Notes: a model not told the origin generated them from the letters alone. A stretch of DNA of 64,000 nucleotides from Parcubacteria group bacterium (GCA_016176785.1 JACOWN010000007.1:6970-70969), one strand, 5' to 3'. Counted from the first letter of the stretch, positions 47,009 through 64,000 are shown. Program-made: numbers and translations.

Positions 47009-47112
47009 AGTGTAGAATTCCACCAGATCAGGTAGATCATTTCAATGGCAAGAGGCCAAAGACGCGCGTAACATCGTTGCGAGAAGGGACACCTCTCTTT
47101 TCGCAGTCAGCC

Positions 47113-48915
47113 ATGGAGATTCCAATGAGCGATGACGTAAAAACAGGCGCCGCGAACAACGTACCGGCGCCGGAAGGACAGTTCGCGGCGGCTTTCGCCG
47201 CCGCGAGGAGCGCGAAGGAAAGCGGTCGGCAGGTGGCGGCGAAGAAGATGCCGAGCTTCGGCCTTCCCTCTCGTGCTTTCAGGACGCAGATTGAGGAGAG
47301 GCGGAAGATGCGCGATGCGCTCATCCTCCGCGGCAAAAACCTGGTCGAAGCGGTGCTCGACCCGTTGCCTGAAGAGGTGTTTGTCCTCGTTGCGCAGCGC
47401 GACGACTTGGTCGCGCAGATGCAGAAGGAGATCGCCGAGAAGGGTCCCACGGCCCGGCTCGCTTTTGAAGGCGAGCTCAAGCAGTACGACAAGTTTCTCG
47501 AGGGATACCTCGAGGGAACCTTCGACCCCAACCTTCAGCCGCACGAGCGCGCGGCCGTGAAGGAGCGGGCGGGGGTGGCGTACATCCTCTGCCGGGCGCT
47601 CGCGCTTTCTAAAAGGGAGGCGTTCCCCGGTGACGTCATTCGGCTGCTCGAGGGCAGCATCGAGAAGAACCTGCCCGAGGACAAGTTTTCCGCCCTCGCG
47701 CTCGGCGTCGTCACCGTCGTTTCGCCCGAGGCGGAAGCCGTCATCAAGAAGAATCCGCGCCGGAGGGACACCGCCGTCGTCATTATCTTGAACAGGAAGA
47801 AGTCCTTCCTGTTCCAGAACGTCGTCGCCGGAAGGCTTGCCGTCGCGGCGGCGAAGAAGGTCCTCGCGAACCCCGACATCCAGGGGTTCCCGGAGACAAT
47901 CCGGGCTCTCTGGGCGCAGGCCGTCCAGCGGGCCGACGCGAAACACGCCGCGGCGGAGAGGGAGATGCGAAAGGGTCTCTCCCTCGGAGCGACCTTCCAT
48001 GATCTCATGGATCAGAAGGAGGTCGTCATCCTCCTTCGAGACCCAGGAGAGGAGGTGGGGGATCGCATTTACCGCCCGGCAGAGATCAAGGTCGCGTCGG
48101 ACGGCACGAACGTCTGGCCGGTGGACGCGGAAGGCCGCGGCGCCGGTAGCGTCCTCTCGTTCGTGAAGAGGGGGATCAGAATTCCCCAGAAGTACTTCGG
48201 CGACTCCTTCCTCAAGGGGGGCGGGCAGCGGCCCGACCTCGCCGGGGCTGAGTTCGCCTTCTGGGCGACGGTGAGACGAGCGATCCAAAACGAAGCAAAC
48301 CTCGCCACGCTCAAGGCCGAGAGCGTGGCGAAGTTCGAGGCGGAGCTCACCGAAGCCGCCTTGCGTGGCAAAAGCCACGCCGCCGAGAAGGGGATTGCCT
48401 ACCTCTCCGAGGCGGAATTTCAGAGCGGCCGCGACGGTGTCGCGGCGGTCTACGTCACGGGGGCGTGGTACGACAAGGAGCGGGATATCAAGGTTTACTA
48501 TCCCGTCATCGTCGTATCTCGCCACGGCGGCAAGGAAGGGCAGAAAAAGATCACTCTCGTTGCCACGATCGGCAACGCAAGCAAGATCTTCGAGGGCTCT
48601 TCCGTCTGCGTCGGCGGAGAGTACTACGAGAGCGACGCCGGACGCGCACAGCCCTACAGCGGCTGCGCATGGCCGCTGAGATCCGTTCTTTGGCTCCACT
48701 CTTCGCAGTTGTCGAAGAGGATGAAGAAAGGAACGGATGAGGAGGTGGAAGCGTCGTCTGCCAGTCCCGCGCCTTCGTCCGACGCGCTCACGACGAGCGG
48801 CACAGACGGCAAGACCCTTGCCGCGGGCAACCCTACTCCCTTCAGTTGCCCGAAGTGCAACTTCATCGCAAAGAACAAGGGCGGGCTTACCGCCCACATG
48901 AAGAAGCACGAGTAG
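47113..48915 (+). CDS. large hypothetical protein with a C-terminal classical C2H2 zinc finger (GC3-rich island II)
   Basis: About 600 aa; C-terminus FSCPKCNFIAKNKGGLTAHMKKHE = C-x2-C-x12-H-x3-H; GGAG RBS before the ATG at 47125; terminator at 48951-48987; strongly GC3-biased codons. Confidence 0.55.
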   Translation: MEIPMSDDVKTGAANNVPAPEGQFAAAFAAARSAKESGRQVAAKKMPSFGLPSRAFRTQIEERRKMRDALILRGKNLVEAVLDPLPEEVFVLVAQRDDLVAQMQKEIAEKGPTARLAFEGELKQYDKFLEGYLEGTFDPNLQPHERAAVKERAGVAYILCRALALSKREAFPGDVIRLLEGSIEKNLPEDKFSALALGVVTVVSPEAEAVIKKNPRRRDTAVVIILNRKKSFLFQNVVAGRLAVAAAKKVLANPDIQGFPETIRALWAQAVQRADAKHAAAEREMRKGLSLGATFHDLMDQKEVVILLRDPGEEVGDRIYRPAEIKVASDGTNVWPVDAEGRGAGSVLSFVKRGIRIPQKYFGDSFLKGGGQRPDLAGAEFAFWATVRRAIQNEANLATLKAESVAKFEAELTEAALRGKSHAAEKGIAYLSEAEFQSGRDGVAAVYVTGAWYDKERDIKVYYPVIVVSRHGGKEGQKKITLVATIGNASKIFEGSSVCVGGEYYESDAGRAQPYSGCAWPLRSVLWLHSSQLSKRMKKGTDEEVEASSASPAPSSDALTTSGTDGKTLAAGNPTPFSCPKCNFIAKNKGGLTAHMKKHE

Positions 48916-48950
48916 CCCCCAATCTAAAACTTCCGTAATTTGTTTCGGAA

Positions 48951-48987
48951 ACCCGCTATGCGCAATGCATGGCGGGTATTTTTTTGC
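48951..48987 (+). terminator. intrinsic terminator after the large hypothetical gene
   Basis: CCCGC...GCGGG stem followed by TATTTTTTT. Confidence 0.5.
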
Positions 48988-48993
48988 CCCACC

Positions 48994-49026
48994 TGTGGAT
49001 AACCAAGCCCAAGGACGGTCCTTTTT
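48994..49026. repeat. bipartite repeat locus C (TGTGGATAA + AAGGACGGTCCTTTTT) upstream of mraY
   Basis: TGTGGATAA at 48994-49002, AAGGACGGTCCTTTTT at 49011-49026. Confidence 0.6.
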
Positions 49027-49080
49027 GGGCCTTATTTTGCGCACTTTGAGCGGCAAAAAAAACGTGTTATATTCAAACCA

Positions 49081-50139
49081 ATGGAAGTCCTCTCCGTTGT
49101 CAAAGTATTTGTGCCAGCGACAGCCGCTTTTTTTGTTGGCATTGTTCTCACGCCGTTTCTCACGCATTTTCTTTACAAACATAAATTGTGGCGCAAGGAA
49201 GCGAAACAGACGACGATCAGTGGCGCGGAAGCCGCGGTAACCCGTTCTCTCGGCAGTCAGCAAAATGAAACAAAAGTTCCTCGCATGGGCGGTATCGTCA
49301 TTTGGGCATCGGTGCTGCTGACGACGCTCGGATTCTGGCTTTTCAAAGATCTCTTCCCTTCCACGCTCACGGAGAAATTGAACTTTTTAAGCAGGAACCA
49401 GACATGGCTCCCTCTTTTTACGCTTGGCGCAGCGTCGCTTGCCGGATTGCTTGATGACGCGCTCGTCGTCTCCGGAAGGGGGCGCTACGCGAGCGGCGGA
49501 TTGCCGCTTCATGTTCGCATCCTTATCGTGCTCGCGATCGGCGCTCTCGGCGGGTGGTGGTTTTTTACCAAATTGGGAGTGAACGCGGTCGCGGTCCCGT
49601 TCGCGGGAGAGATTTTCCTCGGTCTTCTGTTCGTGCCGTTTTTCATGCTCGTGATGCTCGCGCTTTTTTCCGGAAGCGTCATTGACGGCATTGACGGGCT
49701 TGCCGGCGGCATCATGGCGATTATTTTCGCCGCGTACAGCATCATCGCTTTTTTCCAGGATCAGATTGACATCGCCGCTTTTTCCGCCGTCGTTACGGGA
49801 GGACTTCTCGCGTTTTTGTGGTTTAATATCCCCCCCGCGCGGTTTTACATGTCGGAAACCGGCATGCTCGGGCTTACGACCTCGCTCACCGTCATCGCAT
49901 TTTTAACCGACGCGGTCTTTGTGTTGCCGCTCATTGCGTTTCCGCTTGTGGCGGCTTCCGGCTCCGTTATCGTTCAGCTTCTTTCCAAAAAATTCTTCGG
50001 CGTAAAGGTTTTCCGCGCGGCTCCCTTGCACCATCACTTTGAAGCGATCGGCTGGCCTTCATACAAAGTAACCATGCGGTTCTGGGTTCTGGGTGCTATT
50101 TTCGCGCTTCTGGGCGTCGTCGTGGCGCTTGTCGGATAA
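49081..50139 (+). CDS. mraY: phospho-N-acetylmuramoyl-pentapeptide transferase
   Basis: 10-TM GT4/MraY topology; conserved DD, ..VIDGIDGLAGG.. motifs. Confidence 0.9.
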   Translation: MEVLSVVKVFVPATAAFFVGIVLTPFLTHFLYKHKLWRKEAKQTTISGAEAAVTRSLGSQQNETKVPRMGGIVIWASVLLTTLGFWLFKDLFPSTLTEKLNFLSRNQTWLPLFTLGAASLAGLLDDALVVSGRGRYASGGLPLHVRILIVLAIGALGGWWFFTKLGVNAVAVPFAGEIFLGLLFVPFFMLVMLALFSGSVIDGIDGLAGGIMAIIFAAYSIIAFFQDQIDIAAFSAVVTGGLLAFLWFNIPPARFYMSETGMLGLTTSLTVIAFLTDAVFVLPLIAFPLVAASGSVIVQLLSKKFFGVKVFRAAPLHHHFEAIGWPSYKVTMRFWVLGAIFALLGVVVALVG

Positions 50140-60853: not shown

Positions 60854-60899
60854 CCGCTGTCCCGCTTGCTCCCTTTCGCCCTTTTAATTATTGCTTGTC

Positions 60900-61178
60900 T
60901 TATTTTCCCAATGCGGCTTCAACGACAAGCATTTTATCTTCAAGCCGTTCCAGGCGGTTGTTGTGGTCGCGCAAAAGAAGGTTTTCAATGCGGTCAAGGC
61001 GTGTTTTCACTTCTCCCATGTCTGCTTTGACCCCCCTTATATCTGCTTTCACCCCCCTTATATCTGCCTTGACCCCATCCATATCAACTTTTGATGCGGT
61101 TTCTTCAAATCCTCGTGCGGTCATCTCCGCCAGAGCGTCTATCTTAGCAATTATTTTGGTGTTGGATTCTTCCGCCAT
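60900..61178 (-). CDS. hypothetical small coiled-coil protein with three 21-nt tandem repeats (GVKADIR x3)
   Basis: 92 aa; repeats at 61020-61080 on the plus strand (ccccccttatatctgcttt-like units); lies immediately downstream of the tail-fibre-like gene on the same strand. Confidence 0.45.
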   Translation of the reverse strand: MAEESNTKIIAKIDALAEMTARGFEETASKVDMDGVKADIRGVKADIRGVKADMGEVKTRLDRIENLLLRDHNNRLERLEDKMLVVEAALGK

Positions 61179-61219
61179 AACAATAATGTAACGTACTCAA
61201 AATTGAGCCGCAAGCTCTG

Positions 61220-62362
61220 TTATGTCTGCGGCGTCGTCGTTGCGACTACGTTGACCGTTCTCGCCGCCTCTGCCGCCGCATTCCCCGCGGCGTCGGTTAC
61301 GTTGTAGCGGACGGTGTAGGCGCCGAGCGTCGCCGCATCAACGGGGTTCGTTACAACAATCTGCGCCGTGATGTCTCCGTCGGTATCGTCTGTTGCGGTG
61401 GCGCCTGCATCAGCGTAGGTGTCACCTTGCAGCATCTCCACCGTGCTTGAGCCGACGAGCGTGATCAAGGGCGGTGTCGTATCCGTCGCCTGCTCGCCGC
61501 CGCCTACGATCACGGTTCTGGTTGATGTCGCCGTGTTCCCCGCGTTGTCGGTTGCGACATAGGAAACGGTGTGCGTTGCGGCGACGGACGTGTCAAGCGC
61601 GACCGCGCTCGTAAAGACGCCGTCAAGGTAGGTCTGATAGCCCAAGTTTGAGTCCACATTGTCCGTTACCGTCGCGCCGTTGTCCGAATACGCCATGCCG
61701 AGCGCGATTTCCGCCGGATTTGCGCCGACAACGATGATGACGGGAGGCGTCGTATCGGTCGTTTGTTCCGCGCCCGCTCCGGCGTTTGAGTTTATATTTG
61801 CGTTCGCAAGCAACGCTTGCAACTGGTTCTCGTTGATACACGTGCTTCCGATGCAAAATTGGTCGCTCACGGTAATCCTCTGCGTGAAAATATCCGTAAA
61901 CGCGTTCGTTGCGGCCGCGATGCCGCTTGCGACTTGTTGTTCCAGCGTTTCAACCTTCTTCACGAGTTCTTGAAATGCAGAGAGAAGCGAGGTAACGAGT
62001 TTGTAAAGGTCAACCCCCTTACCGCCTTTGGCGAGAATTTCCTCCGGCGCTTCTTCCGCGATAAGCCCCAGCCGTTTCGGGTCGGTATCGTCATCGGTAT
62101 TGTAACGATAGGTTGCAACCCCGATGTTTTTTATCTTTTCAAAAAGCGATTCCTTCGCGGCTTCGTTGATATACGAGATGTCTTTTTTGCTTTCTTGCGT
62201 TGAAATGTTGACGAACGATTGTGCCGCAACATCTCCTATGACGTGGAGCGCGTATTCCGGCGTTGTCGTTCCGATGCCGATCCGCCCGCTTGCGTCAATG
62301 TAAAGCGACGGCGTTGAAGTTGGCGCAAGAAGCGTGCTTATCGCCGCCTCGCGCTGCTGCGT
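61220..62362 (-). pseudogene. tail-fibre-like surface protein, C-terminal segment: fibre repeat, complete intramolecular-chaperone (peptidase S74-like) motif, two DUF5011 Ig-like domains
   Basis: Open minus-strand frame continuous with 62363-63529 except for the TAG at 62363-62365; ..SKKDISYINEAAKESLFEKIKNIGVATYRYN...LGLIAEEAPEEIL..VDLYKLVTSLLSAFQEL.. resembles the S74 chaperone core; ..TTPPLITLVGSS..DAGATATDDTDGDIT..YTVRYNVTDAAGN.. repeats are DUF5011-like; the ORF-track start at 61963 is GTG. Confidence 0.5.
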
Positions 62363-63529
62363 CTAGGACGACAGGTAATTGAAGAACACGGGGCGGAGTT
62401 GCATCACCTCGGCAAGCCCGTAATCCAAGTCGGCGACGTTCTCCTTATAGCGAAGCGATGAGGACGAATTGCAGTCGTTTGAGGTATTGACGCGGATTTC
62501 ACCCGTCGCGCTTGACCAGCACACGTCATCCTCTATGGTAGTTCCTGTCTCAAGCCCCGTCGCAAACATGTTGCCGTTGACATCAATTTTCATTTTTTCG
62601 GTAAAGGTAATGGTATTGCCCGCAGACCCGCTCCCTGCGGTGCGAAATATGTAACTGGCGGCGCCGTCTAAATAAACCTGTGAAGCGGCGGCGGTTTCTT
62701 TGTAAAGCCATGCGGTACCGTTGTAAAGTGCGTTCTGTCCCAAAAATGTCTCGTCGGAAACCCCCGCCAAGCCCGTCCTGTCGCCTATATCAAGTGCCGG
62801 GGTATTTGTCCACTGGCCATTCGGCACCACTCCGATGCCCAAGACACCAGTGCTTGTAATTCTCACCTTTTCCGCCATGGCTCCGTCAAGCATAGTGGCA
62901 AACACAAGTGCGGAATCACGCGTTGAAGCCGTGGATGTCCACTCTACTTCTTTTGCGGAAAAGACGCCTCCGGCGGTTCGTGAAGCACCCCCCGTATCCG
63001 CGAAAAAGAAACCATACCCGGCGATGCCGTTCACGGAGAATGTCGCGCTCGGCGAGGTTGTCCCAATGCCCAAGTTCCCGCTTGAATCAAGGCGCATGAC
63101 CTCGGTGCGCCCGCCCGCTTGGTGGTTTATGAACGCGAGTTCTGTTCCCCCCGATTCGCGGATTGACGAGATGCGGGATGATTTTGTTGCCGCCGTGCCG
63201 TGGTAGAAAATGAGGTCGGCGGTCGTGTTTTCTCCTGTACTCTTATTCTCTATGATGAGCGCGGGCGGCAGGTTCACGCCGTCCGAGGCGGTGTAGGTGA
63301 GCGCGCTCGTCGTTGCCGCGTGGAGGATGCCGTAGGTTTCCGTTGGTGAGTCAATCGCGATTTTCCCGTTGTCAAATATCGTGAGGATTTCTTTGTTGTT
63401 CGCGTCCGCGATTGCGAGTGTGCGTCCGGTTGAAACGCCCGCGCCGTTCACGGAGAATGTCGCGCTCGGCGAGGTTGTCCCAATGCCCAAGTTCCCGCTT
63501 GAATCAAGAGGTGCTTCCCCCGCGGTCAA
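62363..63529 (-). pseudogene. tail-fibre-like surface protein, central segment with xSGNLGIGTTSP repeats and a truncated S74-like motif before an in-frame TAG
   Basis: 388-aa ORF; DSSGNLGIGTTSPSATFSVNG occurs twice; C-terminus ..SSLRYKENVADLDYGLAEVMQLRPVFFNY resembles the first half of the S74 chaperone motif, then LSS and a stop. Confidence 0.5.
63026..63091. repeat. 66-bp perfect direct repeat, copy 1 (copy 2 at 63443-63508) inside the tail-fibre-like gene
   Basis: gccgttcacggagaatgtcgcgctcggcgaggttgtcccaatgcccaagttcccgcttgaatcaag is identical at both sites; copy 2 coincides with the frameshift. Confidence 0.75.
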
Positions 63530-64000
63530 TCATCTGAAGCGTCCGCCCGATACCGACATCCCCCGCGACCATAACATACGGGCTGTTGAACGCCTGCGTC
63601 GTCGTCGTGCCGACGAGCAGATTGCCGTCAGATGTAATTCTCATCTTTTCACCCGCAGTTGCGTTAAGTGCGGCGGCAAAGACCATCGCAGAATCTCTTG
63701 TGGAGCCGGTGGTTGTCCACTCCTGTTCCTTCCGCACGAAAATCCCGCCTGCGTTTCTTTCGTTACCGGAAGTATCGGCAAGGCGGAAACCCAATGCCGC
63801 AAAATTATTCGTCGCCGCAGTAGTATCGTAGTTTGAAATGAAAGAAGCGACTCCGGTGAAATCGACGGCTCCCGTTTCAGTTCCGTCCCTCCTGACTTCA
63901 AGGCGTGAAGCGGGACTCGTGTCTCCGATGCCGACGTTGCCCGCATTGTCAATAATGAACGGCGTCTGGTCGGGTGATGTGTCATCCTCCACCAAAAACG
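63504..64000 (-). pseudogene. tail-fibre-like surface protein, upstream segment (runs off the window); frameshifted relative to the 62363-63529 segment
   Basis: 163-aa ORF paralogous to repeats in the next segment (AGGIFVRKEQEWTTTGSTRDSAMVFAAALNATAGEKMRITS vs AGGVFSAKEVEWTSTASTRDSALVFATMLDGAMAEKVRITS); overlaps it by 26 nt in another frame. Confidence 0.45.

Follow-up and report, generated by a model that had tools for sequence, protein, structure and literature searches.

A probably inactivated giant-fibre gene in a Parcubacteria chromosome and its tandem-S74 relatives in Patescibacteria

How do episymbionts of the Candidate Phyla Radiation (CPR, Patescibacteria) recognise and hold on to their hosts? 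To our knowledge, this is largely unknown beyond the type IV pili of Saccharibacteria. A locus in a Parcubacteria group bacterium bears on the question. The 64,000 nucleotides analysed here (GCA_016176785.1, JACOWN010000007.1:6970-70969; this whole stretch is the window, and positions are counted from its first letter) carry on the minus strand, from 64000 down to 61220, part of a gene whose product resembles phage tail fibres, and this gene is interrupted twice, by a frameshift and by an in-frame TAG. What would the intact gene encode, and what do the interruptions mean? As far as the sequence can tell, the locus probably represents the 3' third of a gene on the chromosome that encodes a giant, membrane-anchored, trimeric surface fibre (about 2,130 amino acids (aa) if intact) and that has recently been inactivated.

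The comparison that carries this reading is with intact relatives, which we group, on the basis of a genome scan and alignments made here, as a tandem-S74 giant fibre family. Among 51 open reading frames (ORFs) at the scanned loci that contain a divergent type of the Peptidase_S74 domain, 27 hold a canonical S74, a spacer of about 45 aa and the divergent S74 in one uninterrupted ORF. In the gene under study all modules of the family occur in order, but the ORF is broken by the frameshift and the TAG and the first S74 is halved. Judged by its sequence, this gene is a defective member of the Patescibacteria tandem-S74 giant fibre family.

The lesions can be located closely. From the ORF list and three-frame translations, one minus-strand frame is open from a TTG at 63529 to the TAG at 62363-62365 (388 codons), and the same frame stays open past the TAG from 62362 to a TAA at 61220-61222 (380 codons). 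The piece upstream (64000 to 63507, minus strand) sits in another frame, which ends with a TGA at 63504-63506. Both frames are open together only over 63507-63529, and we therefore place a single indel or frameshift there. This stretch holds a run of five Gs at 63517-63521 (C5 on the plus strand); in the upstream frame, '...LQMIDRGG' resembles the start of a repeat motif, which then restarts as 'LDSSGNLGIG', and the junction looks as though two pieces had been joined out of register or the G5 run had gained or lost one nucleotide. An earlier note on this DNA, drawn up from the sequence alone, had described a frame broken only by the TAG and an upstream segment in a different frame; the open frames, 63529 to 61223 and 64000 to 63507, bear out both descriptions. 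The features of this part of the gene are as follows.

63507-64000, minus strand: end of the upstream fragment (last 164 codons of the 1,371-aa ORF HYS74_01895, P0001), shaft with 'GNVGIGDTSP' and 'EKMRITSDGN' repeat motifs; ends at TGA 63504-63506
63509-63529, minus strand: frameshift window, the only stretch open in both frames; contains the G5 run, and removing one G would fuse the frames; directly 5' of a copy of a 66-nt exact repeat
63443-63508, minus strand: copy A of the 66-nt exact direct repeat (repeat family D1, 100% identity, spacing 417 nt), encoding LDSSGNLGIGTTSPSATFSVNG
63026-63091, minus strand: copy B of the same repeat, from the repeat search
62366-63529, minus strand: middle fragment of 388 codons, with shaft repeats and then a Cys-containing tip region ('DDVCWSSATGEIRVNTSNDC'); matches phrog_9942 (3.2e-17) and phrog_18345 in PHROGs
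62363-62365, minus strand: in-frame TAG, at the junction of a deletion of about 55-60 aa relative to intact relatives

The TAG thus coincides with a loss of sequence. When the gene is aligned with 14 intact relatives, and also against the homologue P0005, it jumps after '...S-S-L-R-Y-K-E-N-V...L-R-P-V-F-F-N-Y' to the end of the first S74 ('...AAISTLLAPTSTPSLYIDASGRIGIGTTTP...'). The deleted segment of some 55-60 residues is the C-terminal half of that domain ('K..GFIAEEV..IPE.V...DY..L...L..AIQEL'), and in the alignment with the 14 relatives the TAG lies within a few codons of the junction. The distance from the start of the first S74 to the start of the second is 76 residues here versus 116-129 in the relatives, and the other frames around the TAG show no trace of the half that is missing.

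Could the TAG be read as something other than a stop? Recoding was considered and rejected: TAG closes 15 of the 52 long ORFs of the window, the adjacent cysS among them, and ARAGORN detects no tRNA gene in the 64 kb. The first in-frame ATG, GTG or TTG past the TAG is a GTG at 61963, within the last helix of the second S74, which means that the second S74 module could not be made alone from a standard start. With TAG an ordinary stop and no start for a lone second S74, the lesions are therefore better understood as inactivating than as sites of recoding. Since all three fragments are otherwise open, the inactivation would be recent, and we judge that the gene is probably a young pseudogene.

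The identity of the modules rests on profile searches. Pfam places Peptidase_S74 (PF13884) in the post-TAG fragment at residues 57-107 (27.4 bits against a cutoff of 22), while the pre-TAG fragment ends in a partial S74 that covers profile positions 1-31 of 58 and, at 19.3 bits, falls below the same cutoff. PF16403 (DUF5011) matches the post-TAG fragment in two stretches (E = 4.6e-28, 97.5 bits against a cutoff of 27). The shaft motif 'GN(L/V)GIGTTSP' occurs four times, always in the fibre gene and nowhere else in the window, and tail or tail-fibre families of PHROGs match both the shaft (phrog_9942) and the second S74 (phrog_5555, 1.2e-13), the latter via the C-terminal ends of the phage profiles. 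These features are far beyond chance. The elements on either side of the TAG, in the order of translation, are these.

62366-62461, minus strand: truncated first S74, of canonical type, 'SSLRYKENVADLDYGLAEVMQLRPVFFNYLSS' (Pfam positions 1-31 of 58; positions 1-31 of 79 in a local hidden Markov model (HMM)); the 'GFIAEE...AIQEL' half is missing
62459-62461 and 62444-62446, minus strand, within the preceding element: Ser and Lys of the first dyad, both kept (coordinates from the sequence)
62234-62305, minus strand: lead-in repeat of the second module, 'LYIDASGRIGIGTTTPEYALHVIG', homologous to the repeat motif of Bdellovibrio MAT (mosaic adhesive trimer) fibres (8ojn, 1.3e-09; 8ond, 9.2e-09)
61913-62233, minus strand: second S74, complete and of divergent type ('DVAAQSFVNISTQESKKDI...RLGLIAEEAP...GKGVDLYKLV...'), with a C-terminal helix; supported by Pfam (27.4 bits), PHROGs and S74-type matches in the Protein Data Bank (PDB)
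62201-62203 and 62186-62188, minus strand, within the preceding element: Ser and Lys of the second dyad (S54 and K59, invariant in the family alignment)
61805-61858, minus strand: Cys-loop linker 'FCIGSTCINENQLQALLA', consensus ELC(V/I)GSTC(V/I)xxxQLQxLL, with C175 nearly invariant
61505-61738, minus strand: first DUF5011 or Bact_surface_Ig-like domain (PF16403 and local HMM; confidently modelled, with tandem Ig-like adhesin folds as matches)
61247-61465, minus strand: second DUF5011 or Ig-like domain, the best Pfam stretch (residues 300-372, profile 1-71 of 71); the gene ends at TAA 61220-61222

All factual elements of the earlier note are therefore recovered: tail-fibre-like repeats, a truncated first and a complete second S74 motif with the TAG between them, and, by the HMM search it suggested, both Peptidase_S74 and DUF5011 above threshold, with the two DUF5011 copies in the roughly 230 aa that follow the second S74 together with the Cys-loop linker. 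The S74 module is accordingly not at the extreme C-terminus. The dyads read S-S-L-R-Y-K in the first copy and S-T-Q-E-S-K in the second, so that Ser or Thr takes the place of the Asp of SDxxxK. The Ser and, five residues on, the Lys are invariant in all 12 sequences of the family alignment A2 and in 50 of 50 aligned divergent copies, and among matches of the canonical S74 model in relatives the Ser is present in 61 of 61 and the Lys in 95 of 95.

Structure prediction of the C-terminal region, also suggested by the note, answered in part. For the 380 aa past the TAG the mean predicted local distance difference test score (pLDDT) is 63; the first DUF5011 domain is modelled as beta-rich and Ig-like (pLDDT 83-94), whereas the S74 part came out poorly (pLDDT 33-69). 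Foldseek matches are dominated by Ig domains, namely tandem Ig-like adhesin domains (Rib, SraP, SiiE, cadherins). Given the poor S74 model and the Ig-dominated matches, membership in S74 rests on the sequence profiles. A search of NCBIfam returned only sub-threshold matches to OmpL47- or LapB-like Ig domains. At the level of profiles, the family matches PDB entries 7dc3 (MYRF, myelin regulatory factor; 1.2e-14), 6f45 (phage long tail fibre; 1.8e-14), 8jov (3e-12) and 3gud (GA-1; 1.4e-4). The profile of subfamily A3 additionally matches the MAT crystal structures 8ojn, 8ond (Bd2133), 8oml and 8ol4, all of them on 'IDxxGNxGIGTxxPxxxLHV'.

How widespread is the arrangement? Local HMMs detect S74 in 79 of the 120 best homologues. 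In 65 of these it occurs without DUF5011, and 57 of the 65 have a canonical terminal S74 with a tail of only 14-27 aa. The other 14 combine S74 with DUF5011, and DUF5011 always comes after S74 (Pfam coordinates for P0004, P0005 and P0100). The earlier note had called this order unusual, which holds relative to phage proteins but not within Patescibacteria, where it recurs. A scan of species-representative genomes with an alignment of the C-terminal module gave 80 loci, nearly all in Patescibacteria (Lloyd-, Niyogi-, Taylor-, Kaiser-, Specht-, Yonath- and Uhrbacteria, Paceibacterota, and metagenome-assembled genomes (MAGs) labelled Saccharibacteria), and the full module is present in dozens of Patescibacteria chromosomal contigs (E = 1e-50 to 1e-79). 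Outside Patescibacteria the scan returned only weak S74-level matches (Bdellovibrio, Bacteroidia, others). Genome and viral scans alike used the 3-sequence alignment A3, which biases them towards the divergent-S74 subtype; conversely, the divergent copy of P0002 and that of P0005 escape the canonical HMM. The consensus of the divergent S74 is 'DVAAxSFVNISTRxAKKDIxY...RLGLIAEEAP...GKGVDLYK'. The canonical S74 in the 27 tandem loci is near full length in 26 and partial (model positions 1-51) in L022. These loci often add one or two DUF5011 domains, with two, as in the present gene, in L040 (Kaiserbacteria), L020, L021 and L006, and fibre ORFs of relatives reach more than 3,800 aa.

Weaker S74 or repeat matches (L051, L062-L064, L072, L079 and others) come from MAGs of Bdellovibrio/Bacteriovorax, Bacteroidia, Nitrospirae, Leptospiraceae and Desulfobacterota, so that the combination of fibre and S74 module reaches far beyond phages into a range of cellular lineages. 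L051, labelled Gammaproteobacteria, carries a divergent S74 of Patescibacteria type and may be a binning error. In one Patescibacteria MAG, giant fibre ORFs stand side by side (L011 and L023; contig CAYNRJ010000002.1, 83,672-125,683): the ORFs of this array measure 366, 2,680, more than 3,165 and more than 3,631 aa, three have the N-terminal head described below and two have a divergent S74 with DUF5011, a tandem set of paralogues reminiscent of the multi-member MAT repertoire of Bdellovibrio. Our literature search found no description of S74 fibres in CPR bacteria, nor of a family with tandem S74 or Ig domains after S74; the nearest published statement is that very large Patescibacteria surface proteins are candidate host-interaction factors (PMC13059738).

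The upstream part of the gene extends beyond the window. The best database match, P0001, is the 'hypothetical protein HYS74_01895, Parcubacteria group bacterium' (1,371 aa, 100% identity, encoded on a contig of 82,980 nt), which ends '...QMIDRGGSTS' and is the upstream fragment of the fibre gene itself; a CPR host, where the earlier note had spoken of a putative small-genome episymbiont, is borne out. An intact gene would encode the missing segment in addition to 1,371 + 388 + 380, or roughly 2,130, aa. P0001 starts with a conserved domain of about 60 aa (consensus GKKYISSxRAxExxGYTxDYIGQLCRxGKIExxxIGRxWFV) that it has in common with at least eight relatives (P0100 and ORFs in L006, L023, L029, L030, L035, L049 and L053). 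Searches with this domain gave only weak hints of HTH_17 and AM32; the HTH_17 (helix-turn-helix) matches are sub-threshold and occur in 7 of 9 members (best E = 1.5e-4). A DNA-binding-type fold, here weakly HTH_17-like and so of excisionase type, is an odd thing to find on a giant surface fibre. The N-terminus is hydrophilic, and about 130 aa of low complexity separate the head domain from a single hydrophobic segment at residues 189-207, the putative transmembrane (TM) helix. From this we infer an N-in, C-out membrane anchor with the fibre projecting outward.

Is the gene truly broken in the organism? Several points weigh against a recently inactivated fibre gene. The deletion is defined against relatives only about 30-60% identical, and the 14 of the junction alignment were hand-picked by us from the 27 intact tandem-S74 loci; our HMMs for S74, divergent S74 and DUF5011 were likewise built from iterated seeds of our own choosing (E cutoffs of 1e-2, 1e-3 or 1e-8), the S74 part of the monomer model is of low confidence, and adhesion, trimerisation and autocleavage we infer from homology only. 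NCBI annotates the upstream fragment as an ordinary protein. No independent assembly covering the lesions was found in searches of sequence records, Logan, GTDB representatives and JGI metagenomes: Logan contigs of five samples with an identical cysS all stop at 60857-61390, at the 3' end of the gene or slightly within it, the search for encoding contigs has no record of P0001 or of a 247-aa ORF, the source MAG is absent from the GTDB species representatives, and a scan of JGI metagenomes gave no relative above 37% identity across the S74 region. Many fibre genes of relatives lie at contig ends (among L006-L085), and the 66-nt exact repeat abuts the frameshift. Genes of this class commonly break short-read assemblies, through repeats or strain variation. 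One might thus suppose that the gene is intact in the organism and that frameshift, deletion and TAG are local artefacts of assembly or consensus, such as a mosaic drawn from strain variants that coexist for a hypervariable repetitive gene. The sequence comes from a short-read MAG, assemblies made independently in Logan break at this very gene as relatives' genes break at contig ends, the repeat stands directly beside the frameshift, and the three fragments are otherwise open over about 6.4 kb, all of which would fit. Yet De Bruijn assemblers do not invent junction k-mers, so that each junction should be found in some reads; the collapse of a repeat would, as a rule, stay in frame and create no new stop; and with 106 G/C runs of five or more in the 64 kb, no other gene there shows a visible break. 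Intact ORFs (greedy long) cover 91.7% of the window despite those runs, which makes a general base-calling error unlikely, and the post-TAG segment is the sole unexplained non-ORF stretch adjoining a gene. An artefact therefore seems to us possible, though doubtful.

A different objection would be that the gene is broken on purpose, so to speak. The pieces might be separate proteins (a 1,371-aa anchor with shaft, and a 388-aa protein from the TTG at 63529), or slippage in the G run or read-through of the TAG might restore the full product by phase variation or recoding. Surface fibres are classic phase-variable genes. The frames overlap by only 26 nt, with the TTG at hand, and the upstream part already has its place in the NCBI annotation as a protein. 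For all that, functional breaks strike us as improbable: a tract of five Gs is short for slippage, and the window has 106 such runs; TAG serves as an ordinary stop, with no suppressor tRNA seen in the window, and its coincidence with the loss of half a domain is beyond repair by read-through; the 388-aa piece has neither signal nor anchor, the post-TAG S74 has no start codon, and 27 of 27 relatives encode one continuous ORF. The earlier note had offered pseudogenisation, phase variation or assembly error to explain the interruptions; pseudogenisation or a local assembly fault is now favoured, and phase variation or recoding disfavoured, by the position of the TAG at a deletion junction when compared with the 27 intact relatives. 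Still less credible is a remnant of a prophage or tailocin, that is, a tail-fibre gene in place of a cellular surface protein. The shaft repeats and S74 are homologous to phage tail-fibre families in PHROGs and to solved phage fibres, and the neighbours inspected are those on the 3' side, the gene itself running on past the window's edge to a start at about 67.6 kb. Against this, the N-terminus consists of a conserved cytoplasmic domain and a TM helix common to relatives, the 3' neighbours are housekeeping genes (cysS, corA, an S41 peptidase, ribosomal proteins L9 and L27; nothing there points to a phage), and the full module recurs with strong scores in the Patescibacteria chromosomal contigs mentioned above. 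Viral contigs gave 79 matches in the scan with A3, at best E = 1e-11; most cover residues 17-145 or thereabouts, two weak ones (L151, L166) extend to about residue 185, and none reaches the DUF5011 domains at residues 209-372. Since viral matches stop short of DUF5011, the full module looks cellular.

If the gene is a recently inactivated member of a cellular fibre family, what known system does that family resemble? The closest characterised analogue is the Bdellovibrio MAT fibre family, specifically its S74 subgroup. MAT proteins form trimeric beta-prism fibres with variable binding tips on the surface of Bdellovibrio bacteriovorus; in 13 of the 21 the C-terminus is an S74 carrying SDxxxK, self-cleavage of Bd3182 takes place at S782 and is blocked in an S782A mutant, and the proteins begin with a signal peptide followed by a conserved beta-rich N-terminal domain of about 130 aa (Caulton et al. 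2024, PMC10769870). Both families are encoded by cells and not by viruses, and both would make surface fibres like phage tail fibres in a bacterium that lives on other cells. The two have in common the 'xxIDxxGN(V/L)GIGTxxPxxxLHV' repeat, variable C-terminal ends and an S74 chaperone/protease module with a Ser-x4-Lys motif, self-cleavage having been shown for Bd3182. They differ at both ends. Here, to judge by hydropathy and weak profile matches, a weakly HTH-like cytoplasmic domain and one TM helix replace the signal peptide and beta-rich domain; and whereas the S74 members among the MATs end in S74, here a tandem S74 is followed by the Cys-loop linker and one or two DUF5011 domains. Size separates them as well: Patescibacteria ORFs exceed 3,800 aa, the full-length Bd2133 has 1,031 residues (PMC10769870), and the Patescibacteria proteins are known from their genes alone.

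Phage fibres with S74 (K1F endosialidase 3GW6, T5 pb1 4UW8, 6f45, GA-1 neck appendage 3gud) share PF13884 with this gene, the module being preceded in both by a beta-helical fibre, and in the tail-fibre chains 6f45 and 8jov it is 'SDrRiKkdI' that lines up with the Ser and Lys columns. In phages, however, the protein ends with this domain, which is cleaved off and discarded, whereas here about 230 aa follow and another S74 precedes; the second copy is of a divergent subtype ('FVNISTRxAKKDI', Asp replaced by Thr), and the gene sits in the chromosome of a CPR bacterium and encodes a putative membrane anchor. The best PDB sequence match of the family profile is the intramolecular chaperone auto-processing (ICA) domain of MYRF (7dc3). 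MYRF also has a non-C-terminal S74-type domain with further domains after it, a membrane anchor and an N-terminal domain of DNA-binding type. It is eukaryotic, however, and its Lys column aligns while the Ser column is Ala in 7dc3 ('PADLRAKEHV'). In MYRF the membrane does not separate the ICA from the DNA-binding domain, and a transcription factor is set free by cleavage; the S74 modules of the fibre would lie some 1,500 aa beyond the TM helix, outside the cell, so that cleavage would not free the N-terminal domain. With DUF5011 surface proteins the gene has its two PF16403 matches and the Ig-like model of the first in common, and it differs from them in the placement of these domains after a self-cleaving chaperone module, which among the sequences examined here was seen only in Patescibacteria relatives.

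Taken together with these analogues, the sequence suggests how an intact relative would be built. A cytoplasmic, weakly HTH-like domain would lead through one TM helix into a long extracellular shaft made of 'xMRIDxxGNVGIGTxxP' repeats of the phage-tail-fibre or Bdellovibrio-MAT type; a Cys-bracketed tip would follow, then the canonical S74, a short spacer repeat, the divergent S74, the helical Cys-loop linker and two DUF5011 domains. Folding of the trimer would presumably start from the C-terminus, at the S74 modules, which would then cut themselves at their invariant Ser-Lys dyads. With both cuts made, the anchored fibre in its mature form would have the Cys-bracketed tip, directly ahead of the first S74, as its end, and the portion with S74 and Ig domains would be released or held non-covalently. 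By analogy with the systems above, the fibre would most plausibly mediate recognition of, or attachment to, a host cell or surface. What this genome itself can make would be an anchor with a shaft truncated in mid-repeat and fragments lacking a complete chaperone, presumably non-functional.

More tentatively, one may go further and regard the intact relatives as an undescribed class of host-recognition organelle in Patescibacteria: a trimeric fibre of giant size, anchored by a TM helix and related by descent to phage tail fibres and MATs, in which two sequential self-cleaving S74 modules release or retain an Ig-tipped fragment and the HTH-like head might couple the fibre to the cell interior. 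The copy described here would then be a snapshot of turnover in a fibre repertoire, for example a failed tip swap or the loss of a host specificity. We hold this extension to be doubtful.

What the locus offers in any case is a pointer to a widespread Patescibacteria family of giant tail-fibre-like proteins with a predicted membrane anchor, whose repeats and S74 are common to the characterised prey-recognition fibres of Bdellovibrio. Tandem S74 modules with intact dyads, Ig-like domains after a module that is normally cleaved, and a conserved cytoplasmic N-terminal domain are features that we did not find described in the searchable literature. The family is a concrete, testable candidate for host attachment in Parcubacteria, and it raises the biochemical question of what a double self-cleaving chaperone does. 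The copy in the window, being probably defective, is of value mainly as a guide to this family and as an example of gene turnover or of the difficulty of assembling such genes.

Three smaller observations concern the surroundings of the gene and the window at large. Among the 3' neighbours, a 92-aa coiled-coil ORF (60900-61178, minus strand) follows the fibre stop at a distance of 41 nt, on the same strand and ahead of cysS. It contains three tandem 'GVKADIR' units, encoded by 21-nt repeats, and has no match in Pfam or NCBIfam. A homologue of 41% identity is found just upstream of the Lloydbacteria fibre ORF in L006 (5700-5900), and the small ORF may be a conserved partner of fibre genes. Elsewhere, two ORFs on opposite strands, 47077-48915 (plus, 612 aa) and 47107-49263 (minus, 718 aa), overlap almost fully, and one of them is presumably spurious. 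The GC content of the window is 52-60%, which is fairly high for a Parcubacteria genome.

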